The translations under genes were made by a program, and so were the position numbers. From the IMG/VR virus record IMGVR_UViG_3300024955_000001, positions 4,579 through 68,578 of that record: a DNA stretch of 64,000 nt; one strand, 5' to 3'. A model generated the notes under the pieces. That model searched no databases. It worked only from the letters and a program-made list of their open reading frames with translations, and was not told the DNA's origin. Shown here one piece after another: positions 30,795 through 60,413 of this stretch. Origin of the DNA: a virus. The first letter of the stretch is position 1. Each line of letters opens with the position of its first letter.

Positions 30795-30816
30795 TTCTGG
30801 GGTTCGCGGTGGGCGC

Positions 30817-32042: not shown

Positions 32043-32047
32043 CGGAC

Positions 32048-43169: not shown

Positions 43170-43630
43170 GCTGCCCGCCCTTCCAGGCCCAGGGCCTGGC
43201 GTGCGCTCTGCAGCGTGAACGGCAGGATCTTGTCTCCGGCCTCGGCGCGCTGAACGATGGTGCGGGCCCAGCCCTTCTCGTCGGCCTTGGGCGCCAGCGC
43301 CTGCTTGAGTTCCAGTTGCTTTGCCACCTGCGCCGACACCACCGCCTCATCCGCCTTGGGCGCGGGCAGCGCCTTGAACACGGGCGGTGGGCACAGGTTG
43401 GCGATCTTCTTGAGCTGGCCCACGTTCGTAGGGCAGCGCTCCGGCAGGTGGCGCAGGGCGTACCGAAGCGGCTCCAGGTTGTTGGCGTAGCCGCTCAGTT
43501 CCTCGGCCCAGTCGGCTTTGACGAATGCCATGTCCATGCCATCCCACTGGCGCAGCCACTCGTGGCCATAGCGCACAGTGAGCTTGTCGAAAATGGCGTC
43601 GATGACGACCATGAATTCAGGGCTTGTCAT
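43160..43630 (-). CDS. replication protein P-like (helicase loader candidate)
   Basis: 156 aa. ATGA overlap with the initiator gene. Layout and the LPERCPTNVGQLKKI segment recall lambda P. No DnaB/DnaC gene in the window. Confidence 0.4.
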   Translation of the reverse strand: MTSPEFMVVIDAIFDKLTVRYGHEWLRQWDGMDMAFVKADWAEELSGYANNLEPLRYALRHLPERCPTNVGQLKKIANLCPPPVFKALPAPKADEAVVSAQVAKQLELKQALAPKADEKGWARTIVQRAEAGDKILPFTLQSARQALGLEGRAAWQ

Positions 43631-44682
43631 GCTGCTGCTCCTTCAATGCGCGGCGCGGCCTCGCGCGCCTGAACGTCGATGACCGGCCCTCCAGCCATGA
43701 AGCGCTGGGCAGCCTCAAAGCCGCTCTCTGCGCCGGGGGCCTTGCGGGCAACGCCCGGGGCGACTTCCTCCATGCGCTGGCGGGCAGCGCGCTGGGCAAA
43801 GGTTTCGGTGGGTGCGTCAGGCGCTGGGGGCCCACCAGCGGTGCCGGTTTGGCACTGGGTTGCCCACTTCTCTGCGTCCGACAGCAGCAGCTTTACGGGG
43901 TGCATCTGCTTGACCACGAAAGGCTCCTGCACCTTGGCGACGTAGTGGTAAGCCACGCGGGGGGCGCGCTCGACGCCCACGCGGTCGATGAACTGGCTCA
44001 CCTGACCGGCCACGGTGGCATTCCACACGGGCCATGCGCCGTAGCGGGTGTGGTACGCGATGGCGTAGGCGCACCATGCGTCGTGGGTTTTGGTCTTGCT
44101 GCCGGGGTAGCGCAGATCGGCAGGGATTTCATGGACGACACCCTTCTTGTCCGTCACCCGCATCGGCTCGACCACGGCGTCAGCCTTGGTCGTAATATTC
44201 TTTGTAGTAGTCTTTGTAGTAGTCTTTGTATCTATACAGTCATCGGTGCAATTTGCACTGATCGATTGGTGCAACTTGCCCTGTTCCATCGGTGCAGATT
44301 GCCCTGTTCCATTGGTGCAATTTGCACCGATGCATTGGTGCAAATTGCCCGCTTCCATCAGTGCAATTTGCGCGTAGTCGATGGTGTAGTAGTTGGTCCG
44401 GTCGCGGCCGACTTCGGACAGCTTTTCGACCTTCACCAGCCCCTTGGATTTGAGGGCGGCAAGCGTGCGCTTGATCGTGTCTTGCGACCAAAATGGGAAC
44501 TGCTCGTGCCAGCGCTCCAGGGAGTTGAAAACCCAGCGGCTACCGGCGTGCTCAACCCCGCCACCCTTCTTCTTGATCCAGTAGTGGATCTGCTGGAGCA
44601 CGATGGCCTCATTCAAGCCGATGAGGGCCGCGAGCTTGCGGTTCACCAGCAGGATTTCGTCTTTGCTGAACAAAAGGCTCAT
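43627..44682 (-). CDS. replication initiator (O-like / DnaD-like wHTH) containing the origin iterons
   Basis: 351 aa. The N-terminal wHTH (LNEAIVLQQIHYWIKKK...TIKRTLAALKSKGLV) is followed by a region encoded by six 23-bp iterons. Confidence 0.65.
   Translation of the reverse strand: MSLLFSKDEILLVNRKLAALIGLNEAIVLQQIHYWIKKKGGGVEHAGSRWVFNSLERWHEQFPFWSQDTIKRTLAALKSKGLVKVEKLSEVGRDRTNYYTIDYAQIALMEAGNLHQCIGANCTNGTGQSAPMEQGKLHQSISANCTDDCIDTKTTTKTTTKNITTKADAVVEPMRVTDKKGVVHEIPADLRYPGSKTKTHDAWCAYAIAYHTRYGAWPVWNATVAGQVSQFIDRVGVERAPRVAYHYVAKVQEPFVVKQMHPVKLLLSDAEKWATQCQTGTAGGPPAPDAPTETFAQRAARQRMEEVAPGVARKAPGAESGFEAAQRFMAGGPVIDVQAREAAPRIEGAAA
44199..44230. repeat. tandem 12-mer (tctttgtagtag x2.7), AT-rich, flanking the iterons
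   Basis: Read directly. Encodes KTTTKTTTK in the initiator. Candidate DNA-unwinding element. Confidence 0.6.
44245..44382. repeat. origin iterons: six direct repeats with exact 23-bp period
   Basis: Units start at 44245, 44268, 44291, 44314, 44337 and 44360. The core is (G/A)GTGCAAnTTGC (palindromic TGCAA/TTGCA). They lie inside the initiator gene, as in lambda ori. Confidence 0.8.
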
Positions 44683-45296: not shown

Positions 45297-45569
45297 TTAC
45301 GCGGCCTCCTTCGCTTGTGTGGCGGCTCCGTTGCGCAAGTACGCCCAATCGACATCAGGGTGCAAGCGCTCGCACTGAACTCCGGTCAGGCGCTCAATGA
45401 ACGGGCACATTTCTGCTGGCGCTCGCTGATCGCGGTTGACCCAGTTCCAAACCCGAGCCTGGGAAACCGGGCTGGGCGCCAGTGCTGACAGCTTTTCGGC
45501 CAGCGCAGATTGACCGCCAGCGAGCTTCACCGCTTCGATCAATGCATCAACAGGTGTTGTGTTACTCAT
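45297..45569 (-). CDS. cro: Cro-like / YdaS-family HTH regulator
   Basis: 90 aa. GGQSALAEKLSALAPSPVSQARVWNWVNR HTH. Divergent from the cI-like gene across an operator-rich 69-bp spacer. Confidence 0.7.
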   Translation of the reverse strand: MSNTTPVDALIEAVKLAGGQSALAEKLSALAPSPVSQARVWNWVNRDQRAPAEMCPFIERLTGVQCERLHPDVDWAYLRNGAATQAKEAA

Positions 45570-45626
45570 CCCTTGAGAATAACACTTGTTGATTTAGGCA
45601 TCAACCCTTGTTTTCAACATTTGTTT
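45548..45626. promoter_or_regulatory. right-operator-like cluster: four CAACA-NN-TGTTG sites between/over cro and cI starts
   Basis: caacaggtgttg 45548-59 (perfect palindrome, inside cro codons 4-8), taacacttgttg 45580-91, caacccttgttt 45602-13, caacatttgttt 45615-26. Confidence 0.6.
45576..45604 (-). promoter_or_regulatory. PR-like promoter for cro operon
   Basis: On the minus strand TTGATG (45599-45604), 17 nt, TATTCT (45576-45581). Colinear with the PL-like promoter sequence. The -10 ends 6 nt before the cro ATG. Confidence 0.5.
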
Positions 45627-45638: not shown

Positions 45639-46397
45639 ATGAAATTCGGAGAGCGGCTGGATGCAGCCTTAAAACACTTGGGTTGGGGCCCTTCTGACCT
45701 TGCGGGCCGCACCTCCGTTGCTATGCCGACGATCAGCGCGATAACTACGCGCGGCAGTGACAGGACAAACTACAAGGAGGATCTGATTCGCGGCTTCCCT
45801 GCGGACAAGATCAGCCATGAATGGCTGCGCTCAGAGTTGGGCAGCATGATCCCCGCTGCCGCGCTGGATTCACAAGGAGTGGCCACCAACATCCTTGCTC
45901 CAGCACCAGCACCTCACGAGGCTCCGTCTGGAGCACCGGGCGCCCCTCCTGATTTGGTCATCGCCGAGTACGATACGGGTGGCGGCATGGACACCACCGG
46001 GCGCCTGATGCTGGACGACCAGCCAGGCATCATCAAGAGTTGGCGCGTGTCTCACGATTGGCTGCGCCTGAATGTTCCATCCCATACTGGCGTTCGCAAC
46101 CTCTGCATCGTTACTGGCTTTGGGCCATCCATGCGGCCCATGTTCAACCCCGGCGACCCGCTGCTGGTGGACATTGGCGTGAAGACCGTGACCCACGAGG
46201 GCGTATATTTCTTCCGCGTCGGTGACGAAGGGTTTATCAAAATGATCCAGCGTGTGCCAGACCCTCATGGGGACGGCGTGATGCTGAATATCATTTCCAA
46301 GAACCCGGACTACCCCCCTTACCCTATGTCACCCAAGAATCCGCATTTCGAGATTTTGGGCAAGGTACTGACGGTGTGGCGCAGCGAACAGTATTGA
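45639..46397 (+). CDS. cI: CI-like repressor (XRE HTH + S24 LexA-type autopeptidase)
   Basis: 252 aa. N-terminal HTH. C-terminal TGFGPSMRPMFNPGDPLLVD...FIKMIQR carries the Ser/Lys dyad pattern of S24 peptidases. Confidence 0.85.
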   Translation: MKFGERLDAALKHLGWGPSDLAGRTSVAMPTISAITTRGSDRTNYKEDLIRGFPADKISHEWLRSELGSMIPAAALDSQGVATNILAPAPAPHEAPSGAPGAPPDLVIAEYDTGGGMDTTGRLMLDDQPGIIKSWRVSHDWLRLNVPSHTGVRNLCIVTGFGPSMRPMFNPGDPLLVDIGVKTVTHEGVYFFRVGDEGFIKMIQRVPDPHGDGVMLNIISKNPDYPPYPMSPKNPHFEILGKVLTVWRSEQY

Positions 46398-46687
46398 GCC
46401 TGGCAAAACCGACACTCATGCTGTTCGCTGTGCTTTGCGCATGGCCACAGATGGCTGGCGCAAGAACAGAGCGCGACCGTTCCCAGGTGCGCGCGTTCCG
46501 CGCCGAGCACCCGTGCCCAGCCACTGGCCGCACGCGCGGCGCCTGTCCGGGGTGGCATGTGGATCATGTGATTGCGCTATGTGCTGGAGGTGCTGACAGG
46601 CCCAACAACATGCAGTGGATCACGAGAGAGGACCACCGCTTTAAGACCTTGGTAGATGTGAGAGAGTGCCGAAAAGACCGCCGATAG
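46376..46687 (+). CDS. small HNH nuclease with N-terminal signal peptide
   Basis: 103 aa (GTG 46376, or ATG 46418). LMLFAVLCAWPQMAGA signal-like sequence, then CPGWHVDHVIALCAGGADRPNNMQWITREDHRFKT (HNH). Overlaps the cI 3' end and shares its terminator. Confidence 0.65.
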   Translation: MAQRTVLSLAKPTLMLFAVLCAWPQMAGARTERDRSQVRAFRAEHPCPATGRTRGACPGWHVDHVIALCAGGADRPNNMQWITREDHRFKTLVDVRECRKDRR

Positions 46688-46721
46688 GCGCCCAGAGGCC
46701 CACAACTCGTTGCCACAACAC

Positions 46722-46747
46722 AACCGCCCGTGAGGCGGTTTTTTGTT
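46722..46747 (+). terminator. intrinsic terminator after cI-HNH unit
   Basis: aaccgcc-cgtga-ggcggtt followed by ttttgtt. Confidence 0.75.
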
Positions 46748-46786
46748 GCCCGTCTGAGCCGATAGTTTCCCGAAATTCAATGAAAT

Positions 46787-46833
46787 CAACGAATGTTAAA
46801 AACACTTGTTGACCGCACAATCAACACTTGTTA
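46787..46833. promoter_or_regulatory. second operator cluster (three CAACA-NN-TGTTG-like sites), mirror image of first
   Basis: caacgaatgtta 46787-98, aaacacttgttg 46800-11, caacacttgtta 46822-33. Spacings are 13 and 22 bp, versus 22 and 13 bp in the cro-cI cluster. Confidence 0.6.
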
Positions 46834-46837
46834 TATT
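46809..46837 (+). promoter_or_regulatory. PL-like sigma70 promoter of rightward early operon
   Basis: TTGACC (46809-14), 17 nt, TATATT (46832-37), both overlapped by operator sites. Predicted TSS ~46844. Confidence 0.6.
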
Positions 46838-47386
46838 TCGCCTACGCCGTCAACAACGGCTCAGGTGGGTGGATCGGCGCACACCGGAGGCTCTTTCAAA
46901 AAATGCACGCCGATGTTGCTGGCCCCACCTGCGGGGCCTTCGTCCGGCGAAAGAGCACCTTCGGGCATGGGCCGAAGCTATGCGCCGCCGAGATCCGAGG
47001 CGGTTCCCAGTCCGCCGAAGCGCGGTAAACGGGATGGGAACCCCGCAAGGGGCTGACACCACGGAAACGGTGCTGCATGTTGATGCAGCGACACGGCTAC
47101 CAGATGCCGGGATGCCCTCGCAAGAGGGCCATCACGCAGGTGGATTGGAGCAATGTGACTCGCCGCAGGATCAAGCGGAAAGAGAGCACCAGCCCACCGT
47201 CGTGATGGCGCCGCCATCAATCCATACGGGCAAAAGCCACTTCACAAACTTTGGACGGTGCGTGAATCCCCCGGCGAGTAGCCCACCCATTCCTCCCTTT
47301 GACAACAGAACCAGTGCATGCCCTGCGGGCAGGTCATGCGCGGGGTTTGTTGCCGCCTGCCCCAGCGGCGTTTGACAAGGAACCAT

Positions 47387-47806
47387 ATGAAGACCTCCCT
47401 GATCGCCTTGGCAGCTGTCGCAGCCATGGCCATGGCCGCGTGCGGCGACAAAGAAGTGCCGTTCGACCGGCTGGAAGAAGCCCGGCAGACGGCCAAGGCC
47501 AATGCCGAGTTCAACGCGGCGCTCTACAAGGCGCAGAACCCGCGTTTCACCTCGGACTTCACCATCGTGAGCCGCAGCGACGACATGCAATCGCCCAACT
47601 GCCCCCAGGGCGACGGCTGGGCAGAGCTGTCCATCATGCGTGTCGAAGGCAAGCAGGTGGACAAGACGGTGCTGATGTGCTCCACGTTCTCGCAAAGCGT
47701 GGGCTGCTACCGCAAGGAAGACTTCGACAAGAACACCAACCTTGCGAAGCAAAACGGAACCTGCAATTCGCAAGCGCCCTTCCCCGTCCCCCGCATCGGC
47801 AAGTAG
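47387..47806 (+). CDS. lipoprotein (moron; possible exclusion/host-modifying factor)
   Basis: ATG 47387 after AAGGAA. MKTSLIALAAVAAMAMAAC|GDK carries a lipobox. 139 aa with 4 further Cys. Confidence 0.7.
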   Translation: MKTSLIALAAVAAMAMAACGDKEVPFDRLEEARQTAKANAEFNAALYKAQNPRFTSDFTIVSRSDDMQSPNCPQGDGWAELSIMRVEGKQVDKTVLMCSTFSQSVGCYRKEDFDKNTNLAKQNGTCNSQAPFPVPRIGK

Positions 47807-47809
47807 CCA

Positions 47810-47920
47810 ATGGCGCTCATCACCACGCTGATAGGCGGTGGGCTGGCCGCCTGGACGGCTGCGATCTTCTACGCGGCCTATCGCCTTGGCCGGTGGGTGG
47901 AGCGCCGCCGCCGCACCTGA
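47810..47920 (+). CDS. 36-aa single-TM micro-ORF
   Basis: Own translation: MALITTLIGGGLAAWTAAIFYAAYRLGRWVERRRRT. Starts 4 nt after the lipoprotein stop and is followed by terminators. Confidence 0.35.
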   Translation: MALITTLIGGGLAAWTAAIFYAAYRLGRWVERRRRT

Positions 47921-48057
47921 CACAACCATCCATGCCTCGCGTGCGGGGCATTGGTGGGACACGTCCCGAACCTTTCCAACCGCGCCGGGGGTGTCTCCTC
48001 CCTCCCTCCTTTGTGTTCCCCCGGCAGGCCCCGCAAGGGCAGCGGTTTTTTCTCCCC

Positions 48058-48081
48058 AGCCCGCACCACGCGGGCTTTTTT
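48058..48081 (+). terminator. intrinsic terminator after lipoprotein moron
   Basis: agcccgc-accac-gcgggct + TTTTTT. Preceded at 48028-48051 by a weaker hairpin + T6. Confidence 0.75.
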
Positions 48082-48097
48082 ACGCCCAGGAGGCGCA

Positions 48098-48295
48098 ATG
48101 CAAAACGTACACACCACTGTGCAGCCGCTGCTGCGCATCCCTGGCGCACCGCCGCCGATTTCCGAGCAGGAGCTGCAGCGCCTGCGCAGCAAGGCCTGGG
48201 CCGATGTGGCGGCACTGGAGGCCAGCGATCCCCGCTACCACCGCGCGCTGGTCGATCAGGTCCAGCACAACGCGCACATGGGGGTGTGGTCGTGA
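48098..48295 (+). CDS. hypothetical protein
   Basis: ATG 48098 after AGGAGG. 65 aa (MQNVHTTVQPLL...). Confidence 0.5.
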   Translation: MQNVHTTVQPLLRIPGAPPPISEQELQRLRSKAWADVAALEASDPRYHRALVDQVQHNAHMGVWS

Positions 48296-48531
48296 GCACG
48301 AAGACATTCATCCACGCCGACAACGCACTGGCACGCCTGAAAGCGGAAATGTCGGCCGAAATGCAGCGCGCGGCAGAGCCCGCCATTCAACAGGCAGTAG
48401 CGCAAGCAGAGAAGGCCATCCGCGAGCGGGTTGGAGCCATGTGTATCGCCCTGATCGAAAAGGATTTCTCGGTGCAGAGATACGGCGAGAACCTGCAAAT
48501 CACCGTGCGCGGCTTTGGGAGCGAGAAGTGA
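48292..48531 (+). CDS. hypothetical protein
   Basis: GTG 48292, GTGA overlap. 79 aa with protein-like composition (STKTFIHADNALARLKAEM...). Confidence 0.4.
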   Translation: MSTKTFIHADNALARLKAEMSAEMQRAAEPAIQQAVAQAEKAIRERVGAMCIALIEKDFSVQRYGENLQITVRGFGSEK

Positions 48532-48707
48532 TCGACCCCATCAACTCCCCGCACTTCACCAGCACCAGCCGCGATGCCCTTGCCGCATCCCAGGAAGCAC
48601 AGGCTGAAACCAAGCGCCGCAATGAAGCCGCCACCCAGCGCCAGAGAGAGGCTGCGGCCATTGGCGCGGATCTGGACCCGGACGCACTTGAACAAGGAGA
48701 ACCCTGA
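48528..48707 (+). CDS. hypothetical protein
   Basis: GTG 48528, GTGA overlap. 59 aa. Confidence 0.35.
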   Translation: MIDPINSPHFTSTSRDALAASQEAQAETKRRNEAATQRQREAAAIGADLDPDALEQGEP

Positions 48708-48955
48708 TGCCCCCCTTTGAAAACCTCAAGGCTTTTTTCTGTATCGCCGCAGCAGTTCTGTTGACCTCGTATCTCTTGGGCGGCAGCTACCTGCTGGACG
48801 GCCCCGCAGACTGGGAATCCGAGGCCGACAACGCTGCAAACCTGCGGGATGCACTGGCACAGGCGCAGCAAGAGCGCCCCGACCTTTGGACGCCCGAGCG
48901 CCGCGCTCGCGCTGATGTTGCAGCCGGAATGGTGGCGCGGGGCGTGCAGCCATGA
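48707..48955 (+). CDS. small membrane protein
   Basis: 82 aa with one TM helix (FFCIAAAVLLTSYLLGGSYLL). Confidence 0.5.
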   Translation: MPPFENLKAFFCIAAAVLLTSYLLGGSYLLDGPADWESEADNAANLRDALAQAQQERPDLWTPERRARADVAAGMVARGVQP

Positions 48956-49536
48956 AAGAGCGCCCCCTTCCCTTCAAAGTGCCAATGGTGCGCGCCACGC
49001 TGAGCGACATCAAGTTGATGACGCGGCGGATCGTGAAAGGCGCAGCCCTGGACTGGCTTGAACGCGATGGCTTCACGCCTGAGTTCGTGGCGCTGCCCGA
49101 AAATGCAATGTGCCCCTACGGCGTCCCCGGCGACCGCTTACGGGTGCGTGAGGCGTGGCGCACAGTTTCTGCCGTGGATCACCTGCCACCACGCGAGCTG
49201 ACCCCGGCACATCGCATTTGGTACGAGGCCGACGCCCCGCACCAGCCTGGATTCGGGAAGCTGCGCCCGAGCATGTTCATGCCCCGCTGGGTCAGCCGCA
49301 TCACCCTGGAAATCACCCGCGTGCGCGTGGAGCGGCTGCAGGACATCAGCGACGCCGATTGCGTTGACGAGGGCTGTGGCGCACTGCCATCCGCCATCGG
49401 CTGCCCCATGACCAGCGCCCCAGGCGAGACGATCCCGCGCGCCATGTTTCGCGCGCTGTGGGAATCCATCAACGGTCCAGGCAGCTGGGACGCCAACCCC
49501 TGGGTGTGGGTAGTCGAGTTTCGGAGGCTGCCGTGA
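48952..49536 (+). CDS. ASCH/PUA-like domain protein
   Basis: 194 aa. KLMTRRIV...GDRLRVREAW...MFMPRWVSRITLEITRVRVERLQDISDAD pattern, common in phage ASCH-domain proteins. Confidence 0.4.
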   Translation: MKERPLPFKVPMVRATLSDIKLMTRRIVKGAALDWLERDGFTPEFVALPENAMCPYGVPGDRLRVREAWRTVSAVDHLPPRELTPAHRIWYEADAPHQPGFGKLRPSMFMPRWVSRITLEITRVRVERLQDISDADCVDEGCGALPSAIGCPMTSAPGETIPRAMFRALWESINGPGSWDANPWVWVVEFRRLP

Positions 49537-49718
49537 AGGTCATCAAGCAAGGCAAGCTGCCAGACGAGCAGATTCACCGCGAAACCTGCGGCCACTGCAA
49601 GAGCGAGCTGGAATTCAAGCACTCCGAGGTGCAGTGGTCACCAGATCCACGCGATGGCGCCCGTTGGTTCGTCATCTGCCCGGTGTGCACACGGCATGTC
49701 TGGGGTAGCTCCAAATGA
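49533..49718 (+). CDS. zinc-ribbon protein
   Basis: GTG 49533 after GGAGG. 61 aa. CGHCKSE...CPVCTRH. Confidence 0.45.
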   Translation: MKVIKQGKLPDEQIHRETCGHCKSELEFKHSEVQWSPDPRDGARWFVICPVCTRHVWGSSK

Positions 49719-49936
49719 TCCAGCTCGCCCTCGCATTCTTCGGGCTGACCGCCCTCTACATGGCCACGGGAAACAACGCGCGAGCCCGGCGCTGGGCGCC
49801 CATCGTAGGCCTGTGCGGGCAGCCTTTCTGGATCACCTTTGCGCTGCAGTCATCGGCCTGGGGCCTGCTGGCCCTATCCGTCGCCTACAGCGCTGTCTAT
49901 CTGCGTGGCGCCTGGGTGCAGTGGAAGAAGCCATGA
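49715..49936 (+). CDS. small membrane protein
   Basis: 73 aa with 2-3 hydrophobic helices. Confidence 0.5.
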   Translation: MIQLALAFFGLTALYMATGNNARARRWAPIVGLCGQPFWITFALQSSAWGLLALSVAYSAVYLRGAWVQWKKP

Positions 49937-50031
49937 AAACAGTCCTGCTCCTGGCCGCCGCCCTGTTCTTTTTCCACGCCGCTGCCCTGGCCTTCTACAT
50001 GGCCTGGGTTCACCAACCATTCATTCCGTGA
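49933..50031 (+). CDS. 32-aa single-TM micro-ORF
   Basis: MKTVLLLAAALFFFHAAALAFYMAWVHQPFIP. ATGA overlap with the upstream gene. Confidence 0.35.
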   Translation: MKTVLLLAAALFFFHAAALAFYMAWVHQPFIP

Positions 50032-50038
50032 GGTTCAC

Positions 50039-50878
50039 ATGAACGATGCCGCAACTGCAACCGCCGATGGGCTGACATTGACGCCCCTTGAAACGCATCC
50101 GACCCCCGTGCAGCAACGCTCCACCGAGGTGACCCGCTCTGATTCTTCGGCGCTGACGCAGGCCATCATTTCCGCAGCACACGACCCCAGTGTGAACATA
50201 GAGAAGATGGAGAGGCTGCTCGGAATGCACGAGCACATCGCAGCTCGGGATGCTGAGCAGCAATTCAACGCGGCCATGGCCGCAGCCCAAAGCCGCATGG
50301 GCCGTGTGTCTGCAGATGCCGTCAACCCGCAGACCCGCAGCCTTTACGCCTCCTATGCACAGCTGGACCGCCACATCCGGCCGATCTACACAAGCCATGG
50401 GTTTGCCTTGAGCTTTGACCAGGCCGATGGAGCGCCTGACGGTCATATCCGGGTGCTTTGCTATGTGTCGCACATCGCCGGTCATACCCGCACTTACCGG
50501 TGCGACATACCTGCAGATGGCAAGGGAGCCAAGGGCGGCGACGTGATGACCAAAACGCACGCCGTGGGCTCAGGCAAGACCTACGCCAAACGCTACTTGC
50601 TCAAAGACATCTTCAACGTGGCCGTTGGCGAGGACGACGACGACGGGAACAGCGCTGGCAACGGCCAGGGGCCCGAAAAAACGATGCTGGAGCAGTGGAC
50701 CGAGAAGGTCAAATCCACCAAGACGCGCGCAGTGCTCACCGACGTGATGCGCCAAGCCCGAAAGACCTTCCAGGATGCGAAGGACTTTGAGGGCTACCAG
50801 TCGCTGATGCAAATCATCACCCAGCACGGCAACAGCCTGCCCGCTGACCCGCAACAGACGCGACGTGCCCATGCGTGA
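50039..50878 (+). CDS. ERF-family single-strand annealing protein
   Basis: 279 aa. LYASYAQLDRHIRPIYTSHGFAL...SGKTYAKRYLLKDIFNVAVGEDDDDGN matches the ERF superfamily signature. Confidence 0.65.
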   Translation: MNDAATATADGLTLTPLETHPTPVQQRSTEVTRSDSSALTQAIISAAHDPSVNIEKMERLLGMHEHIAARDAEQQFNAAMAAAQSRMGRVSADAVNPQTRSLYASYAQLDRHIRPIYTSHGFALSFDQADGAPDGHIRVLCYVSHIAGHTRTYRCDIPADGKGAKGGDVMTKTHAVGSGKTYAKRYLLKDIFNVAVGEDDDDGNSAGNGQGPEKTMLEQWTEKVKSTKTRAVLTDVMRQARKTFQDAKDFEGYQSLMQIITQHGNSLPADPQQTRRAHA

Positions 50879-51605
50879 CATTCGTTTCCGCTGCTCCAGC
50901 CTGGGTCACCTGATGACGGAGCCGCGCACCAGGGCCGAGGGCGATCTGTCCATGGGCGCGCGCTCCTACATCCGCCAGCTGGTCAAGGAAGAACTGTTCA
51001 GCGTGGAGTTTGAGGTGTCCAGCAAGGAAACCGACAAGGGCATTGCGGTGGAGAACACCGCCATCGCCCTGCTGAACAAGGTGCGCGGCCTGAATCTGGC
51101 GAAGAACACCGAGCGCCGCCGCAACGAGTGGATCACCGGCGAGTGCGACCTGTTCGACGCTCCCCGGCGCCGTGGGCACGACATCAAAGCACCATGGTCC
51201 CTCAAGACCTTCCCGGCATGGACCGTTGACGCCATCGACCCGCTCTACGACTGGCAAATGCGCGGCTACATGATGCTCTGGGATGCCGACGAGTGGGAAG
51301 TGAACTACGTGATGGTGAACACCCCGCACGAGCTGATCCGCAACGAGCCCATGGATCAGCACCTGGTTGACCACATCCCGCCACAGCACCGATTGACCAC
51401 CTGGGTCATTGAACGCGACTTCCAGAAGGAATCGCTCATCCGCCACCGCTGTGAGGCTGCCAGCGCGTACTACGAGCAGCTGATCCGCGAGTTTGACGAC
51501 ACACACCGCATGGACGTGATCGACGTTCAGGCCAAGGTTGTCACCCCACCCCCACAACTTTCCAGCACAGCCGCCTCGCGCGTGCTGCTGCCAACCCTTT
51601 TCTGA
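50871..51605 (+). CDS. PD-(D/E)xK recombination exonuclease (YqaJ/lambda Exo-like)
   Basis: ATG 50871 (MRDIRF). 244 aa. RCSSLGHLMT...GIAVEN...GHDIKAPWS motifs. Partner of ERF. Confidence 0.55.
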   Translation: MRDIRFRCSSLGHLMTEPRTRAEGDLSMGARSYIRQLVKEELFSVEFEVSSKETDKGIAVENTAIALLNKVRGLNLAKNTERRRNEWITGECDLFDAPRRRGHDIKAPWSLKTFPAWTVDAIDPLYDWQMRGYMMLWDADEWEVNYVMVNTPHELIRNEPMDQHLVDHIPPQHRLTTWVIERDFQKESLIRHRCEAASAYYEQLIREFDDTHRMDVIDVQAKVVTPPPQLSSTAASRVLLPTLF

Positions 51606-51614
51606 GGAGATTTC

Positions 51615-52724
51615 ATGACTGAAACCGCAACCCCCACCACCGCCGTGGCGCAACAGCAGGCCACCAACATCGCGGCCAAGCCTATGTCCATCAAGGACAC
51701 GGTGCTGGCCCAGTTCAAGGACACCGAGGCAGGGCTGACCGCCATGGCGGAGAAGTACCGCGACGTGGTTTACAGCGTAGCCGACTCAAAGGGCATGGCC
51801 GACGCTAAGGCGGCCCGCGCGGATCTGCGCGACAACGGCCGGCGCATGCTGACCCGCACCGAGGCCTCCGTGAAAGCGGACGTGAACGAACTCAAGAAGG
51901 TGATGGGCGACGAAGTGGAGCGCCTGATCGCCATCGTGAAGCCGGTCGAAGATGCCATTGATGCCCAGATCAAGGCCGAGGAAAAGCGCAAGGCCGATGA
52001 GAAGGCCGAGCGCGACCGCGAGGAGGCCGAGCGTGTCGGCGCCCATCGCGCCAACATCGAACAGCTCAAGGCCTACGTGGAGCAGGCCGAGGGCCAGCCG
52101 GTGGAAGTGATCGAGAACGCCATTGCCACCCTGGGCGCAATGACCTTTGGCGAGGAATGGGAGGAATTCGCCAAGGAAGCCGAGGCAGCATGCCTCGCCA
52201 CCGTGCAGCGCCTGCTGGCCATGGTCGAGAGCGAAAAGACCCGTATCGAAAACGCCCGCCTGCAAAAAGAACTTGAAGAAGCCCGCGCCAAGCTGGCCGC
52301 CCAGGCACCCGCGCCAGCCCCTGCCCCGGTGGAGCCACCCGCAGCAGCACCAGCCGCGGATTACACGGCGTTCGAGGTAGAGCCATGGGGTGGGCCCACC
52401 GCAGATCAGATAGTGCAGCCTGCGGCCGAGCAAGTTGACCCGCTCGCCCCGGCCCGCCAGCGCGTGAGCAGTTGGGCCGCCGCCCGCAACGCCCCCGCGC
52501 CCGCGCCTGTTCAGGAAGCAGCAGCTCCCGGCCTCAAGCTGGGCACGATCAATGAGCGCCTGGGCGGCGCCATCACCACCAGCGCCGAGGGCTTGCGCAT
52601 CCTGGGCTTTGAACCTGCTGGCAAGGTGGGCGCCCATGGCGTGTACCGCGAGGCCGATTTCCCTCTGATCCTGGCCGCCATGGTGCGCCACATCGAGGCC
52701 GTGCAGGCTAAGGCAGCCGCGTAA
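51615..52724 (+). CDS. coiled-coil hypothetical protein
   Basis: 369 aa. GAGGAG RBS. Long K/E/A-rich helix. Confidence 0.55.
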   Translation: MTETATPTTAVAQQQATNIAAKPMSIKDTVLAQFKDTEAGLTAMAEKYRDVVYSVADSKGMADAKAARADLRDNGRRMLTRTEASVKADVNELKKVMGDEVERLIAIVKPVEDAIDAQIKAEEKRKADEKAERDREEAERVGAHRANIEQLKAYVEQAEGQPVEVIENAIATLGAMTFGEEWEEFAKEAEAACLATVQRLLAMVESEKTRIENARLQKELEEARAKLAAQAPAPAPAPVEPPAAAPAADYTAFEVEPWGGPTADQIVQPAAEQVDPLAPARQRVSSWAAARNAPAPAPVQEAAAPGLKLGTINERLGGAITTSAEGLRILGFEPAGKVGAHGVYREADFPLILAAMVRHIEAVQAKAAA

Positions 52725-52774
52725 CTATCCCGGGACCGATCCAGACCTTTCACTCCAGCACCCAACACCACCAA

Positions 52775-52797
52775 AGCCCGCCGCGTGCGGGCTTTCT
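52775..52797 (+). terminator. terminator-like hairpin (weak T tract)
   Basis: agcccgc-cgcgt-gcgggct then ttct. Same stem as the 48058 terminator. Confidence 0.45.
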
Positions 52798-52816
52798 CAT
52801 GCCCCAAGGAGCATCC

Positions 52817-53101
52817 ATGAGCGACACGACTGACCCGAACAAGCCCGGTGTGCACCGCGCTACCAAAGAAATCAAGACTGGCGGCGCAGGCGATCTGGCT
52901 GACAAGGTCATTGACCTGATGAACGAGTGCTCTGACGCACATGGCGTATTCACCGCTCTCTACGGCGTGCTGTATGCCGCTGGCTCTGCAATGGCTTGCG
53001 CTGGTGTAGCCCTGGATGAGCGGATAGACCTGCGCCAGCAGTTGAACCCTTTGTTCTCTGGTTACGACGACCAGCGCGCAAGCCGGGCCAAGAAACACTG
53101 A
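52817..53101 (+). CDS. hypothetical protein
   Basis: ATG 52817 after AAGGAG. 94 aa. Confidence 0.5.
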   Translation: MSDTTDPNKPGVHRATKEIKTGGAGDLADKVIDLMNECSDAHGVFTALYGVLYAAGSAMACAGVALDERIDLRQQLNPLFSGYDDQRASRAKKH

Positions 53102-53116
53102 TCTCACCACCCCACC

Positions 53117-53142
53117 GGCCCGCCCTCTGCGGGTCTTTTTTT
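53117..53142 (+). terminator. intrinsic terminator
   Basis: ggcccgc-cctct-gcgggtc + T7. Confidence 0.7.
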
Positions 53143-53164
53143 GCCTATCTCAAGGAGAACCTCA

Positions 53165-53656
53165 ATGTCCGCAACCTCTACCCGCCCTCCCATGAGCGCC
53201 ATGCTGGCAGCCCTGCTGCTGGCAGACATCATCGCCTCCATTCCCGACACCGCCCCTGGTGCCGATGGTCTTCCCCCTGGCCTCAAGGAACTGCTGTCAG
53301 CCAAGTGCGATGACCCCACCTGCGACGCCTGCCACCCGACCACGGCGGGCGAGCAGAAGGTGAATGCCGCCGCTGAAGCGGCAGAAGAAACCGAGCACCG
53401 ACACGTCAGCGCCGCTGTCGAGATCCCGCCCGATGTGGCCGAGCTGGTGGGCATGGCCAAGCCCGGCTTCGACCCTGACAGCCTGGAAGGCCACACCCGC
53501 CTGCTGGCAGCCGCTTTCATCATCAACGTGCGCAAGTTGGGCGAGCAGCCGGTGAACACCTTCCCCAAGGCCGCCGCCACCATGAGCGGCATCCGCTACG
53601 TGGAGAACACCGTTCTCGCCGCGCTGTCCACCTTCGCCACCCTGGCAGGCAAGTAA
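53165..53656 (+). CDS. hypothetical protein
   Basis: ATG 53165 after AAGGAG. 163 aa. Confidence 0.5.
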   Translation: MSATSTRPPMSAMLAALLLADIIASIPDTAPGADGLPPGLKELLSAKCDDPTCDACHPTTAGEQKVNAAAEAAEETEHRHVSAAVEIPPDVAELVGMAKPGFDPDSLEGHTRLLAAAFIINVRKLGEQPVNTFPKAAATMSGIRYVENTVLAALSTFATLAGK

Positions 53657-53685
53657 GCCCTCGCCGCCGCCCCATTCCCGCAACC

Positions 53686-53713
53686 GGCCCGCCACTGTGC
53701 GGGCCATTTTTTT
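53686..53713 (+). terminator. intrinsic terminator
   Basis: ggcccgc-cactgt-gcgggcc + aTTTTTTT. Confidence 0.7.
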
Positions 53714-53723
53714 GGAGTGACCC

Positions 53724-54140
53724 ATGAGTACCACACTCAAATCGCCCACGCTGCAGACCAAGCGCAAGCCGTTCACCGACTTCTTCAAGCAGCTGGATTT
53801 CGGCAACCTGGAGCAGGAAGCCACCGACGCGCTGCAGGACATCGTGCACGCGGCCACGCAGACCGGCAAAGCTGGTGAGCTGACCATCAAAGTCAAGCTG
53901 AAACCCATCGGCACCACCGGCCAGGTGGAGCTGGAGGCCGATGTGAAGGCCAAAGTACCGCAGCCCACGCGCGGCAAGACCCTCATGTTCGCCACGCCTG
54001 ACAACAACCTGCAGCGCGAGAACCCCCGCCAAACCACGCTGGACGGCCTGCGCACCGCCGACCAGGAAGCCGCCGCTCGAACCGAGCTGCGCACGGCGCC
54101 CGCCGCCGACGACGCGCAACCCCTGCGCGCCGTCCACTGA
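53724..54140 (+). CDS. hypothetical protein
   Basis: 138 aa. GGAG RBS. Confidence 0.5.
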   Translation: MSTTLKSPTLQTKRKPFTDFFKQLDFGNLEQEATDALQDIVHAATQTGKAGELTIKVKLKPIGTTGQVELEADVKAKVPQPTRGKTLMFATPDNNLQRENPRQTTLDGLRTADQEAAARTELRTAPAADDAQPLRAVH

Positions 54141-54179
54141 TCCCCATTCCATCAACCCGTTCCAACCAGGAGAAAACCC

Positions 54180-54986
54180 ATGGGACAACAAGAGAAAACT
54201 GAAACCGAAGCCCGCGACGAGCTGGCCGCGTGCAATCAGGGCGGCTACCAGTTTGCTGGCACCCCCGGATTCATCCTGCCCGAGGGCTATGAATTCAAGG
54301 AGCTGTCTCACCTGCTCCCAGCGCCGACCCGCAAAAAGGGCACCACCACGCTGAACGACGCAGAGAGCTTCATCGCCGTGGTCAACGACCAAAAGGCGGA
54401 AAGCAGAACGCGCCTGTTCAGCACCATCGACCCGCCAACCTTCACCGCCGTGTTCAACCACATCGGCGCCGAAGCCGGTTGGGGCGACCACCGTGCGCGC
54501 TACAACGCGCCGCTGTCGCCCGAGTGGAAGGCATGGAACGGCATGAACGGCGTTCACAAGTCCCAGGTGGAGCTGGCCCAGTTCATCGAAAACAACCTGG
54601 TGGACGTGGTGAACCCGGACGGCGCCACCCTGCTGGAAATCTGCCGCACCCTGGAAGCCAAGAAGAAGGTGAACTTCGCCAGCGCCATCCGCCTGTCGGA
54701 CGGCTCGCACCAGTTCACCTACGAGGAAGACGTTCAGGGCACCGCGCAGAAGGGTCAGCTCAAGGTGCCCGAGGAATTCATCATCGGCATCCCGGTGTTT
54801 GAAAACGGCGCCAAGTGGCAGCTGAATGTGCGCCTGCGCTACCGCATTCAAGACGGTGGCCGCCTGACCATGTGGATCGAACTGATCCGCCCGCACAAGA
54901 CCATCGAGGCCGCCGTGGCAGAGCTGCGCAAGCAGATCGCTGACGAAACCAAGCTGCCGATCCTCAACGGCACCCCCAACACCTAA
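54180..54986 (+). CDS. DUF2303 (YfdQ-like) protein
   Basis: 268 aa. Overall pattern (FILPEGYEFKEL...FTAVFNH...WGDHRA...SPEWKAW) matches prophage YfdQ-family proteins that accompany recombination modules. Confidence 0.5.
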   Translation: MGQQEKTETEARDELAACNQGGYQFAGTPGFILPEGYEFKELSHLLPAPTRKKGTTTLNDAESFIAVVNDQKAESRTRLFSTIDPPTFTAVFNHIGAEAGWGDHRARYNAPLSPEWKAWNGMNGVHKSQVELAQFIENNLVDVVNPDGATLLEICRTLEAKKKVNFASAIRLSDGSHQFTYEEDVQGTAQKGQLKVPEEFIIGIPVFENGAKWQLNVRLRYRIQDGGRLTMWIELIRPHKTIEAAVAELRKQIADETKLPILNGTPNT

Positions 54987-55072
54987 ACCCCAAGCCCCGC
55001 CCGCCACCCGCGGGCAGGCCGGGCCATGAGCACAGGGCGCGCGGCGCTCTGTCCTGATTGCCTGGAGAACCC

Positions 55073-55663
55073 ATGGAACGACGACAGAGAGACATCCACA
55101 CCATGGCCGAGCAAGCCGGCCTTTCCCCCGTGCGCTACGAGCGCAAAGCCAACCGGGCCACGCTGCTGTGCCTGGCAGAGAACGGCGCGGAGCGCGTTTT
55201 CAGCATCAGCATGGGCACACGCAGCGACGCACGCGGCGACTTGAACGAGCTGAGCGCCATGAAGCGCTTCGCCCGCGAAAACGCCCTGCCATTGCCCGTC
55301 ACCACCAATCGAACCACCCCCAAACCCGACGCCATCACCATGACCAAAACCACCGCCCAAGCCGCGCTCGATCCCGTTGCCTTCTACCGCGCCTGCGAAT
55401 GGCTCAAAGGCCAAAAAATGTCCGCGTTCTCCAGCCTGGAAGGGCTGACGTTGCAGGCCGCGCAGCATGTCGGTACCGCTGTGACCGAGGCAGACATGAA
55501 GCTGGTGATGACCACTCTGAACGTGCAGGAGCCAGCGCTCTGGCACGAACCCAAAGACCCACAGGCCATCCTCGTGCGCGAGCTGTCCACGATCATGAAG
55601 AAGCTGGGCGAGACACCCTCCCCCGCCTTCGACCGATTGGCTGCGAGCCTGCTGCGGGTATGA
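55073..55663 (+). CDS. hypothetical protein
   Basis: ATG 55073, 5 nt after GGAG. 196 aa. Confidence 0.5.
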   Translation: MERRQRDIHTMAEQAGLSPVRYERKANRATLLCLAENGAERVFSISMGTRSDARGDLNELSAMKRFARENALPLPVTTNRTTPKPDAITMTKTTAQAALDPVAFYRACEWLKGQKMSAFSSLEGLTLQAAQHVGTAVTEADMKLVMTTLNVQEPALWHEPKDPQAILVRELSTIMKKLGETPSPAFDRLAASLLRV

Positions 55664-56310
55664 GCCGCCCCGATCACTACGCCACGCTGGGCGTGGCACC
55701 TGATGCCAGCTTGGACGACATCAAGCGGGCATACCGCCGCGCCGCGCGCCACGCACACCCAGACCGTGGCGGAAGCCATGAGCGCATGCAGGCCCTGAAC
55801 GCAGCCAAGGACGTTCTGACCGACCCCGCCCGGCGCGCACGGTACGACGCCGGGGAAGACGGCCAGGCCACAACCGAGGAAGAAGGCGCCCGAGAGCTGA
55901 TCCGCAAACTGTTCGCGGAGGCGGTGGACATCAACAAGGATGACCCTGTGGAAGGTGTGCGCGAAGCGCTGCAGGCCGGCCGCGCCGGTGCCGCTATGAA
56001 GACCTCCATAGCACGCCAGTCCATCAGGCGCCTTGAGGCCCAGCGCGACCGCGTGAAGCCCAAGACCGAGCGCAACGTGTACCTGGACGTGATCGAGTCG
56101 CGCATCGCAGGTGAGCGCGCCCTGATCGCCGCCATGGAAGCCACGGAGCGCACGGCCAAGCTGGCGCTTGAAATTCTGGCCGCCGAATACGAGCGCGGGA
56201 CGGGCGTGGAACGCACTCAGCGCATGTACCCCGACACACCACGCAGTCACTTTGCCGATGCCCTTGGCTACAGCTTCTTGGGCCGCGAACAGACACGGAG
56301 AGGATTCTGA
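55660..56310 (+). CDS. J-domain (DnaJ-like) co-chaperone protein
   Basis: ATG 55660 (ATGA overlap). DHYATLGVAPDASLDDIKRAYRRAARHAHPDRGGSHERMQALNAAKDVLTDPARRARYD contains the HPD tripeptide. 216 aa. Confidence 0.8.
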   Translation: MSRPDHYATLGVAPDASLDDIKRAYRRAARHAHPDRGGSHERMQALNAAKDVLTDPARRARYDAGEDGQATTEEEGARELIRKLFAEAVDINKDDPVEGVREALQAGRAGAAMKTSIARQSIRRLEAQRDRVKPKTERNVYLDVIESRIAGERALIAAMEATERTAKLALEILAAEYERGTGVERTQRMYPDTPRSHFADALGYSFLGREQTRRGF

Positions 56311-57440
56311 TGACCACCACAACGAACCATGATCTGGCCCAGCGCCTGCGCGACGCCTGCACATCGGTGCGCGCCAAGAGCTACCCACTGGCCGACCTGA
56401 TTCCGCTGATGCAGCAGGCGGCCGATGCACTATCGCGGCCAGTGATCAAACTGGGGGCAGCTCCCGACGAACTGCCGGAGCACGTCACCGATGCGGTGGC
56501 GACCGCCCTGGGCGATGCCTACGACTGCACGCGCGTCTGGCAAGCGTGGAGCCACGGCACCATGAGCAGCGATGACTTCCGCCTAGTAGCGGAGGATGGT
56601 GAGCGAGTGGCGGAAATTGCCAAAGCTGCCATCGACGCAGACCGCACAGCGCGGGCAATGCCCAGCGAGGGCGTGGTGCGCGCGCTCTGGATTGCCTATG
56701 GTGGCGAGTTCCATGGCCCGACCATTGAAACAGGCACCATGCCCGAGGCGAAGCTGCTGCCGTTCCTGCAGTCGCTGGCGGCCAACGCGGGCGGTACGAC
56801 CGGGGCCGAGCTGCAGCTGCTGCACACCCTGCTCTATACGGCGCAGCGCTGTACCGGAGAGGTGCAAAAGCAGGCGATCAACGACGCCAGGATCGTACTG
56901 GCGCGCATGCGTGCCGGGCATGGAGGCTCTGCGGTTTGCGCGACCTGCAACGACAACGGCATGATCGGTGGTCCGAGCTACCACCAGCCGGACGAAGGCG
57001 GCGTACCCTGCCCCGAATGCTCCACCCAGGCAGCCCCAACAGAGCAGCAGGCCTACGACATGGGCGCGAAGGGCGCCCCGGCCACGGACGCCGAGCGCCT
57101 GCTTTTTGAGGCATGGATGCGTGGGCACTGCTGGGCTCTGTGCGCAACGTGGGATGGGAAGGGCTATCGGAGCGATGCTGAGCAAGGCGGCAACATCGAC
57201 CCACGGGCAATGAACACGCGCCAACTTTGGGCCGCATGGCGCGACCGTGCAGCGCTCGCCGCCCCACAACAGCCTGCAGTAGCAGCGGGGCGTGAGCAGA
57301 TTGCAGAAGCCGCATTGTGCAAGGTGCTGGCTGCGGTGCAGCGCTACCTGCCACCAGACGGCCCGAATGCCAACGACACGCTGTCCGAAATCATCGAAAT
57401 CGTTGACCCCTGGCCGCTGGGCCCTCTGGAGAAATCATGA
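56310..57440 (+). CDS. hypothetical protein with CxxC...CxxC zinc knuckle
   Basis: 376 aa. TGATG overlap with the J-domain gene. CATCNDNGMIGGPSYHQPDEGGVPCPEC. Confidence 0.55.
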   Translation: MTTTTNHDLAQRLRDACTSVRAKSYPLADLIPLMQQAADALSRPVIKLGAAPDELPEHVTDAVATALGDAYDCTRVWQAWSHGTMSSDDFRLVAEDGERVAEIAKAAIDADRTARAMPSEGVVRALWIAYGGEFHGPTIETGTMPEAKLLPFLQSLAANAGGTTGAELQLLHTLLYTAQRCTGEVQKQAINDARIVLARMRAGHGGSAVCATCNDNGMIGGPSYHQPDEGGVPCPECSTQAAPTEQQAYDMGAKGAPATDAERLLFEAWMRGHCWALCATWDGKGYRSDAEQGGNIDPRAMNTRQLWAAWRDRAALAAPQQPAVAAGREQIAEAALCKVLAAVQRYLPPDGPNANDTLSEIIEIVDPWPLGPLEKS

Positions 57441-57697
57441 GTACCAAGACCATTCCAGCGCAAACCATCAAGACCTGCGACCGCTGCGGCGTCACGATGG
57501 ATCGGGGCAACTCTCGCCAAGAGGGGAAGCTAACGCTCAATGCCCACGCGCTGGACATGCACGGTCATGCCTGCGCCGACGCAACACGCAAGTTCGATCT
57601 GTGTGATTCGTGCCTGTACAGCGTTGCAAAGGCAATCGACTCGGCCATGAAGCCCCTCCCCCCTGCTTCATCTACTGAGGGAGAGCGGAATGGGTGA
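57437..57697 (+). CDS. zinc-ribbon hypothetical protein
   Basis: 86 aa. CDRCG...CDSC. Confidence 0.5.
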   Translation: MSTKTIPAQTIKTCDRCGVTMDRGNSRQEGKLTLNAHALDMHGHACADATRKFDLCDSCLYSVAKAIDSAMKPLPPASSTEGERNG

Positions 57698-57995
57698 ACT
57701 CAAGGACAACGAGAAGGCCTACGACGAAGAAATCGCCCCGGCCCTGCTCGCGCTTGGCAAGCGCTGCGAGGAACTTGGGATGCCGTTTTTAGCTGTCGCT
57801 GAGTGGGCGCCTGGTCAGATCGGGCGCACCGAAGCGTCACCGCCAGAAACAGGCCTCGCTTTCAGAATCATCCAGTACGCAGCCCGCGCGACCCCCAACT
57901 TCGACAGCTTGGCGATCAACCTGATCCGCTACTGCCGCACCAACAACATCGACACCAGCGCGAGCATGTTTCTGTCTCGCTTTTCCAAGGATTGA
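57690..57995 (+). CDS. hypothetical protein
   Basis: 101 aa. Confidence 0.5.
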   Translation: MGELKDNEKAYDEEIAPALLALGKRCEELGMPFLAVAEWAPGQIGRTEASPPETGLAFRIIQYAARATPNFDSLAINLIRYCRTNNIDTSASMFLSRFSKD

Positions 57996-57998
57996 GCC

Positions 57999-59323: not shown

Positions 59324-59346
59324 ACCGCTCAACACGAGGACCACCA

Positions 59347-59442
59347 ATGTCCATTGAACTTGTGCAAGCAATCGGCACGTACATCGTCAGTCCTATCTGC
59401 GGGCTGGTGGCTCTTGCAATCATCTTTTGGAGTCTCAAATGA
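59347..59442 (+). CDS. 31-aa single-TM micro-ORF
   Basis: MSIELVQAIGTYIVSPICGLVALAIIFWSLK. Its stop overlaps the next ATG (ATGA). Confidence 0.35.
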   Translation: MSIELVQAIGTYIVSPICGLVALAIIFWSLK

Positions 59443-60354: not shown

Positions 60355-60375
60355 CAGGCCCCACCCCACAACACA

Positions 60376-60398
60376 GCCCCGCTCATGCGGGGTTTTTC
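60376..60398 (+). terminator. intrinsic terminator upstream of methyltransferase block
   Basis: ccccgc-tcat-gcgggg + TTTTT. Confidence 0.7.
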
Positions 60399-60413
60399 GT
60401 TTCTGGAGCAACG

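Follow-up and report, generated by a model that had tools for sequence, protein, structure and literature searches.

Burkholderiales-2 RNA (RF02917) is part of a larger leader RNA at the nutL-equivalent position of Burkholderiales lambdoid prophages: a candidate antitermination element

Introduction

To our knowledge, processive antitermination that depends on RNA alone is understood in detail only for the put group of phage HK022 and for a few Gram-positive leaders. The HK022 put element is a cis-acting RNA of ~70 nucleotides (nt) that forms two stem-loops with internal loops shortly downstream of promoter pL (PMC9378689), and antitermination in the leaders of ribosomal RNA (rrn) operons works through a boxA with NusB/NusE, NusA, NusG, SuhB and S4 (PMC6614797, PMC4807359). 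For boxA in phage lambda we took the reference nutL directly from the lambda genome, where it reads CGCTCTTAAAAA-TTAA-boxB behind TTGACA-17-GATACT. Here we analyze the leader of an early operon in a 64,000-nt stretch of viral DNA (IMG/VR record IMGVR_UViG_3300024955_000001, positions 4,579 to 68,578; called the window below and numbered from its first letter, with plus denoting the strand shown). The leader holds a member of a known Rfam family, RF02917 (Burkholderiales-2 RNA), for which we newly define the extent, the strand, the genomic address and a probable role. Its conserved structured part occupies 46889-47133 on the plus strand (~245 nt; 190-245 nt across copies) at the nutL-equivalent position of a Burkholderiales lambdoid prophage, and we read it, at roughly even odds, as a cis-acting antitermination leader that would act without an N protein, by a put-like logic to which a boxA is added and in an RNA three times as large.

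The RF02917 motif comes from a comparative-genomics survey (PMC5737381), and Rfam classes the family as cis-regulatory. The literature we searched, which did not extend to the supplements of the defining survey, yielded no mention of the Burkholderiales-2 motif and no account of a boxA or nut element from a Burkholderiales phage. We know of no function assigned to the family. Its model spans 74 nt on the opposite strand, and the record lacks a fixed position behind a prophage early promoter, whereas the RNA described here runs for 190-245 nt from boxA; besides P3 and P4 it includes a 3′ module and, in most copies, is pseudoknotted. What Rfam models appears to be the 5′ third of the full element in reverse complement.

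Like lambda nutL, the element lies behind pL/oL, downstream of cI and rex-like genes and before recombination genes, with terminators farther downstream, and its boxA is of the same sequence type (CGCTCTTAAAAA) and is followed, after a short spacer, by structured RNA. Unlike nutL, it has no 15-nt boxB with a GNRA-like loop after boxA; in its place stands P1/P1a, with a 6-8 nt non-GNRA loop, in a multi-helix RNA about ten times the size of boxB, accompanied by neither a conserved N-like protein nor a nutR twin. With HK022 put it shares a cis-located structured RNA after pL and the lack of an evident dedicated phage protein. Its 5′ module has ~74 nt and two stem-loops with internal loops, as described for put, but the conserved RNA continues to 190-245 nt, about three times the length of put, and is pseudoknotted; it is present in one copy rather than two, and a boxA precedes about three quarters of copies, as opposed to none in the HK022 region. 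Homology to put was rejected, since a family profile searched with nhmmer --max at E values up to 100 found no similarity in HK022 27600-33500 (nun, pL, cI, cro). The put RNA itself acts without boxA or Nus factors, binds the zinc-binding domain of the RNA polymerase beta-prime subunit and suppresses terminators at a distance, and it has a second copy (putR) in the right operon. The rrn leaders resemble the element in that an rrn-type boxA (GCTCTTTAACAA in most copies of the element) stands at the head of a long transcript that is structured and untranslated and for which only host factors would be required; they differ in that the element is phage-borne, stands behind a repressor-controlled promoter and is followed by protein genes and intrinsic terminators.

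Results and Discussion

Extent and structure of the RNA

Scanning the entire window against all Rfam families, as the original prediction from the sequence alone had proposed, returned one significant match, a full-length alignment to RF02917 (model positions 1-74 of 74) at 46909-46983 on the minus strand, with 91.1 bits against a gathering score of 67.9; copies in Bordetella phages score 100.1 bits. The footprint includes the hairpin at 46921-38 and the GAAAGAGC segment. No tRNA or transfer-messenger RNA was found in the window, and the likeness of the UUGGAAUC loop of relatives to a T-loop was judged superficial; this loop is absent from the window. Relatives were gathered by blastn, by two pattern scans of IMG/VR and by one of bacterial genomes, giving ~130 genuine copies. 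By blastn, window positions 46887-47032 match nine Bordetella avium phages, and the named genome hosts are all Burkholderiales (Delftia, Comamonas, Acidovorax, Alcaligenes, Achromobacter, Bordetella, Pandoraea, Kerstersia, Paenalcaligenes, Simplicispira and Giesbergeria).

Covariation in homologous leaders, another check suggested at the outset, was assessed on a 45-sequence alignment (A2) with a curated structure of 49 pairs in 10 helices. Standard pairs are formed in 95.2% of the cells, compared with 31-43% in slid controls; changes on both sides occur in 21 pairs (9-14 in the controls) and in 174 cells (20-29 in the controls), and none of 500 shuffles reached the observed values. The conserved leader RNA is a real structure with at least 10 covarying helices. 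A structured leader of ~540 nt had been predicted; the conserved structured part is limited to the ~245 nt at 46889-47133, and in the window this part folds at z = -2.37.

The 5′ module (46909-46983) coincides with the RF02917 footprint and consists of P1 (46909-12 with 46945-48), in which the fourth pair is GC in 43 sequences and CG in 15, P2 (46955-57 with 46981-83), and the two helices P1a (46921-26 with 46933-38) and P2a (46959-64 with 46972-77), each having 5 pairs with changes on both sides. A longer P1 helix (A-U, U·G, G-C), which alignment folding of the first set had suggested, was rejected because A stands opposite C in 26 of 60 copies; under broader sampling only the 4-base-pair core of P1 covaries. 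Downstream follow the P3 hairpin (46984-89 with 46999-47004; closing pair CG, UG, UA or AU) and P4, where P4a (47005-08 with 47031-34) shows the compensatory forms AGCC/GGCU, GGUC/GACC and AACC/GGUU, and P4b (47010-15 with 47022-30, loop CGAAGC) has pair 149-156 as CG in 30 sequences and UA in 6. Short-type copies that have no P4b still keep P4a, through compensatory changes. The four hairpins named in the original prediction (46921-38, 47041-52, 47073-88 and 47114-29) are all present, three of them as genuine conserved elements, and P2a (46959-77), P3 (46984-47004), P4 (47005-47034) and a UACCAGAU hairpin (47094-47109) are now added to them.

In the type-A 3′ module, which is the commonest, the P5b loop GAC pairs with a downstream GUC (variants GGC/GCC and UGC/GCA) to form a pseudoknot that most relatives carry and that is supported by GC/GU/UA and AU/GC changes. 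Because this pseudoknot accounts exactly for the sequences that break the 'P5a' helix of the alifold structure, it replaced the inner two pairs of that helix. Loci L250, L258, L259 and L213 from IMG/VR carry the type-A module (the pseudoknot together with a UGGAAU-loop hairpin) joined to unrelated or reduced 5′ parts, and an operator-flanked promoter still precedes the module wherever the upstream sequence is readable. The RNA appears to be modular, with 3′ modules that can be exchanged between subtypes.

The window itself combines the standard 5′ module P1-P4 (46909-47034) with a type-B 3′ module (47035-47133), which is common to L060, the L014-type copies, L173 and L196 and is found also in Simplicispira and Giesbergeria prophages. 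The type-B module begins with a variable hairpin, CCCC-GCAA-GGGG (47041-52), the site of a ~110-nt insertion in L014-type copies, and continues with a CACC/GGUG hairpin with loop ACGGAAAC (47057-72), a CUGCAU-GUUG-AUGCAG hairpin (47073-88; variants UGCAU/AUGCA, GGCAU/AUGCC and UGAAU/AUUCA), a CGGC-UACCAGAU-GCCG hairpin with a conserved loop (47094-47109), and a terminal GC-rich hairpin, GCCCUC-GCAA-GAGGGC, extended by GAU/AUC (47114-29). Both the GUUG hairpin and the GC-rich terminal one are found again, with compensatory changes, in type-B relatives, and CGGC/GCCG and GCUGC/GCAGC are further compensatory variants of a type-B hairpin. The GCAA loops, to which the original prediction had drawn attention, are incidental, being carried by variable hairpins 150-230 nt downstream of boxA. 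A pseudoknot between a GCAA loop and UGC at 47070-72 is not claimed for the window, as such pairing by a tetraloop is sterically unlikely and the other type-B copies do not support it.

Across phages of Alcaligenaceae, Comamonadaceae and Burkholderiaceae the RNA keeps many unpaired nucleotides invariant, a pattern that suggests a conserved host partner, for example RNA polymerase or Nus factors, rather than a phage protein that evolves fast.

Strand of the RNA

Across alignment A2, 95.2% of cells pair when read on the plus (operon) strand and 88.9% on the minus strand, and the folding energy of the alignment is -98.3 kcal/mol on the plus strand against -88.3 kcal/mol on the minus strand. The plus-strand reading yields 174 G·U cells and 40 A·C cells. 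Inside the 74-nt RF02917 footprint the signal is ambiguous, as the minus strand gains one conserved G·U pair where the plus strand has A opposite C; outside it, in P3 to P6 and the pseudoknot, G·U outnumbers A·C by 163 to 8. We place the RNA on the operon strand because these counts, boxA, the promoter and all flanking genes point to plus.

Genomic address, promoter and boxA

The related loci have a common order on one strand: a cI-type gene, accessory genes, a terminator, an operator-flanked promoter, boxA, the RNA and the early-left genes. In 59 viral loci a cI/S24-like gene precedes the RNA on the same strand (median start -2020), a cro-like gene is found on the opposite strand in 29 viral loci, and the cI/cro layout is also seen in 13 of the 15 bacterial-genome loci with enough flanking sequence. 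Between cI and the RNA stand variable accessory genes, by eye of Fic, HipA-like, DUF3800 and TerB types among others, and the promoters that precede the RNA in relatives carry palindromic operators. Bordetella phage IFTN3 exemplifies the arrangement, with a repressor gene, accessory genes, a terminator and an operator-flanked promoter, then a 650-nt gap containing the RNA, and then Ea22/HNH/exoVIII/RecT.

The window has the corresponding elements. Its early-left (pL-like) promoter at 46801-46837 (-35 TTGACC at 46809-14, 17-nt spacer, -10 TATATT at 46832-37) matches the sigma70 consensus at 10 of 12 positions, has a TG extension and is the only good sigma70-type promoter of the regulatory region; no second sigma70-like promoter turned up in 46700-64000. 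The operator half-sites that overlap this promoter lie at 46801-12 and 46821-32, and their motif (AACACTTGTTGA/TCAACACTTGTT) is repeated three to four times in the divergent cI/cro region (45546-45625), so that the promoter is read as the pL equivalent under operator control; the same repressor probably controls both the divergent cI/cro promoters and the early-left promoter. The claim of an operator-controlled promoter is therefore sound, and the placement of the leader like nutL of a lambdoid prophage, also proposed originally, is supported by the pL-type promoter and the cI/cro-like layout.

The predicted boxA (GCTCTTTCAAAA, 46890-46901, plus strand) begins ~46 nt after the predicted transcription start near 46844 and has likewise held up: it is of the same type as the lambda nutL boxA, and the dodecamer recurs at a constant offset, 20-23 nt 5′ of an invariant CGATG, in ~62 of 84 related loci. 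Variants among relatives are GCTCTTTAACAA, GCTCCTTAACAA, GGTCTTTAAAAA, GATCTTTAACAA and CGCTCTTAAACA, with the rrn-type forms GCTCTTTAACAA or GCTCCTTAACAA in most copies. It is the sole plausible boxA in the prophage regulatory region, and none was found on the pR side of that region in the window. Pairing of boxA with GAAAGAGC, part of the original prediction, was rejected as a family feature, since it is confined to 3 of 45 copies (the window, L060 and L063). The RNA occurs once in each of 106 loci, once in the whole IFTN3 genome and once in the window; searches with nhmmer --max of the window and of the complete phage genome found no second (nutR- or putR-like) copy, and no second boxA was found.

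Farther 5′, the leader block CAGGTGGGTGGATCGGCGC (46862-46880, plus strand) is by eye a variant of a conserved upstream motif. This block 5′ of boxA (GRTGGGYRCC..GATCGRSC, often after GCAGCA..GTTGCAC) is found in loci such as L024, L014, L037 and L048; of 73 unique upstream regions, 20 match an xGGG..N..GATCG-type pattern, the window not being among them. The block could form a small hairpin in the position that boxB takes in the boxB-boxA-boxC order of rrn leaders.

Terminators and the proposed mechanism

That strong terminators follow in the operon was correctly foreseen: four plus-strand ones were located at 48058, 53117, 53686 and 60375, the first strong intrinsic terminator of the operon occupying 48058-48086. 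Beyond this first terminator lie, on the operon strand, genes for an Erf-like annealing protein (50039-50878) and an exonuclease (50865-51605), and beyond the last one listed lies a DNA methyltransferase gene (60414-62171). In relatives, a stringent detector placed a terminator on the plus strand 1-400 nt before the RNA in 33 of ~70 loci and none inside the RNA in ~72 loci; from +200 to +2400, terminators are common on the plus strand (43 of 75 loci) and all but absent on the minus strand.

On the antitermination reading, the early-left promoter would transcribe boxA and then the multi-helix RNA, that is, the 5′ module, P3/P4 and the 3′ module. The nascent RNA would fold and remain bound to the transcribing RNA polymerase, with host NusB/NusE, where boxA is present, binding there and helping to hold the complex. 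The polymerase so modified would resist Rho in the untranslated leader, a protected stretch of 240-540 nt whose C-rich distal part might otherwise invite Rho, and would pass the intrinsic terminators that stand before the recombination and other early-left genes, with no phage N-type protein required. Binding to RNA polymerase and Nus factors, and antitermination itself, are what we infer from the anatomy, conservation, covariation, strand, address and terminator layout observed. Of the two mechanisms originally put forward, the preferred N/nut reading is not supported, and the RNA-only, put-like fallback fits better, as a matter of logic and not of descent from put.

Several observations weigh against this reading. 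A terminator directly follows the RNA in only 8 of 64 loci, and a loose terminator scan showed no overall enrichment (16 found, 16.1 expected). The RNA is present as a single copy per phage, whereas both early operons of lambda and HK022 have sites. Given the great diversity of N proteins, a partner may have gone unrecognized. About one quarter of copies have no boxA, from which it follows that Nus recruitment is not essential to the role of the RNA, whatever that is; and an RNA three times the size of put with swappable 3′ modules could point to another function. Taken together, the copies without boxA and the interchangeable 3′ modules make a different role, as a processed trans-acting RNA, a decoy or a sensor, a serious rival.

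Protein partners and micro-ORFs

The N/nut-like module of the original prediction included two small open reading frames (ORFs), one of them Arg-rich. Neither is conserved. An ATG near the start of ORF1 (46903-47028) is present in 5 of 71 unique copies, and ORF2 (47077-47205) has no counterpart even in the nearest relative, L060. The invariant ATG inside P1 opens frames of 7-200 amino acids whose sequences diverge after ~13 residues, since the lengths of the hairpin loops vary by 1-2 nt, and substitutions in the RNA follow base-pairing rather than codons. With an unconserved start codon, frame-shifting loop indels and an ORF2 restricted to the window, the micro-ORFs were rejected as genes. Clustering of the proteins encoded downstream of the RNA at ~75 loci revealed no common family; the largest cluster, from 17 loci, is membrane- or lipoprotein-like. 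The IFTN3 genome has no annotated N or Q antiterminator.

Weighing the alternatives

Among other explanations, a role outside antitermination, in which a stable, processed trans-acting noncoding RNA or a decoy for a host protein is made at induction and boxA merely shields a long untranslated transcript from Rho, as for rRNA, deserves the most attention and is in our judgment unlikely. The size of the RNA (190-240 nt), its pseudoknot, its invariant loops and its modular 3′ domains exceed what known antiterminator RNAs need; a terminator right after it, as in the 8 of 64 loci, would release a discrete RNA of ~290 nt; and both the single copy per phage and the C-over-G distal leader, a possible Rho loading region, would suit such a role. 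It sits poorly, however, with an RNA that always lies, in operon orientation, after the early promoter and ahead of the first early-left gene, with the lack of a terminator or evident processing signal just after the RNA at most loci, and with the failure to identify a target or partner. A classical N-dependent nut site, where an unrecognized, fast-evolving N-like protein would bind a hairpin and, with Nus factors on boxA, modify RNA polymerase, is less probable still. The hairpin element starts 8-10 nt after boxA, as in lambda nutL, and directly after pL, and N proteins, which are notoriously divergent, could escape clustering. Yet no family emerged from the ~75 downstream regions, the Arg-rich ORF is found in the window only, and the first downstream gene is lipoprotein-like with no Pfam or PHROG match. 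The RNA is moreover near-invariant across distant phages, whereas boxB and N co-vary from phage to phage among lambda-type phages, and neither a GNRA-like boxB at the boxB position nor a nutR twin nor an annotated antiterminator in IFTN3 was found.

The cis-regulatory class given by Rfam, the pseudoknot, multi-helix junctions and invariant unpaired bases, and the terminators directly after some copies would also be compatible with a riboswitch-like or attenuator leader that senses a ligand or host factor and gates early-left transcription. We consider this improbable: in most copies there is neither a neighboring terminator nor an alternative pairing overlapping the fold, 3′ modules are swapped among subtypes, which would be unusual for a ligand pocket, and a phage early promoter with boxA is the signature of processive antitermination and not of a local switch. 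That the functional RNA is the minus-strand transcript, as drawn in Rfam and antisense to the early-left leader, is very hard to sustain. The Rfam model does score on that strand, a conserved G·U pair is gained there within the 74-nt footprint, and the window has a weak minus-strand terminator-like site at 46977-46959; the pairing, G·U and energy comparisons given above favor plus, boxA is meaningful on the plus strand only, promoter, upstream terminator and flanking genes are all plus, no minus-strand promoter was found, and the U-rich tail after P2a is specific to the window. Almost no weight is left for small regulatory peptides encoded by the two micro-ORFs, both of which are open in the window, with an Arg/Lys-rich tail in ORF2, in the face of their poor conservation, the frame-shifting loop differences and the substitutions that track pairing.

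We therefore retain the cis-acting, N-independent antitermination leader as our reading. A broader proposal, which we offer tentatively and regard as doubtful, is that Burkholderiales lambdoid prophages use an unrecognized class of protein-independent antiterminator RNA, ~200 nt long, pseudoknotted and half recorded in Rfam as Burkholderiales-2 on the wrong strand, which would load onto RNA polymerase behind pL and, in contrast to HK022 put, engage NusB/NusE through an rrn-type boxA; with its interchangeable 3′ modules it would be a hybrid that combines the strategies of put, nut and rrn. Should the element work as our reading of it has it, an orphan Rfam motif would gain a function, a strand and its full extent, and phages would be seen to have a second RNA for reprogramming RNA polymerase, far larger, of independent evolutionary origin and tied to the Nus/boxA machinery. 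The RNA would then mark the early-left operon of Burkholderiales prophages, whose hosts include Bordetella, Achromobacter, Burkholderia and Pandoraea, and, being so highly conserved, it would offer a compact target for structural studies of complexes between RNA polymerase and RNA outside Escherichia coli.

Distal leader and first downstream genes

The distal leader (47134-47386, plus strand) lies outside the conserved RNA and has a C-over-G skew at ~47180-47340. No relatives were found for 47134-47303, which folds at z = -1.40. Beyond 47133 the sole relative of the window is L063, which matches 47304-47400 at 97%, and the last ~85 nt of the leader (47304-47386) travel with the downstream lipoprotein-like gene. 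The stretch 47180-47340 is weakly structured, with a GC skew of -0.16 to -0.29, and could serve as a Rho loading region. The first gene downstream, within 47387-48086 on the plus strand, encodes a lipoprotein-like protein of 139 amino acids, and after it come a hydrophobic ORF of 36 amino acids and the strong terminator; 47387-48086 resembles a moron cassette that has been inserted behind the leader RNA and before the recombination genes.

Immunity region and other features

The window contains the immunity region of a lambdoid prophage. The cI-type repressor gene (45639-46397, plus strand) was assigned by a Peptidase_S24 domain match, and a Cro/YdaS-type (cro-like) gene, typed by its domain, diverges from it on the minus strand (45297-45569). 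A small HNH-like ORF (46376-46687, plus strand), whose HNH match is weak and falls short of the Pfam cut-off, overlaps the end of cI; it occupies a rex-like accessory slot, and its N-terminus resembles a signal peptide by eye. An intrinsic terminator at 46722-46745 on the plus strand (AACCGCCCGTGAGGCGGTT followed by TTTTGT) ends the repressor and accessory-gene transcript just 5′ of the early promoter.

An O-like replication gene on the minus strand (43627-44682) contains, at 44241-44371 and 44192-44235, at least four iterons with a 23-nt period (CATYGGTGCAAWTTGC...) plus 12-nt repeats; this is a lambda-style origin embedded in the initiator gene. In Bordetella phage vB_BaM-IFTN3 (L001), the same early-left operon carries at 6492-6692 an Rfam C4 antisense RNA upstream of Rha/Ant antirepressor genes, beside which an a1/b1 target match reaches 44.7 bits against a cut-off of 46.7 bits; this region is a P1/P7-type immI module within a lambdoid layout. 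Elsewhere in the window, a single ORF of 4301 amino acids extends over 3315-16220 on the minus strand.

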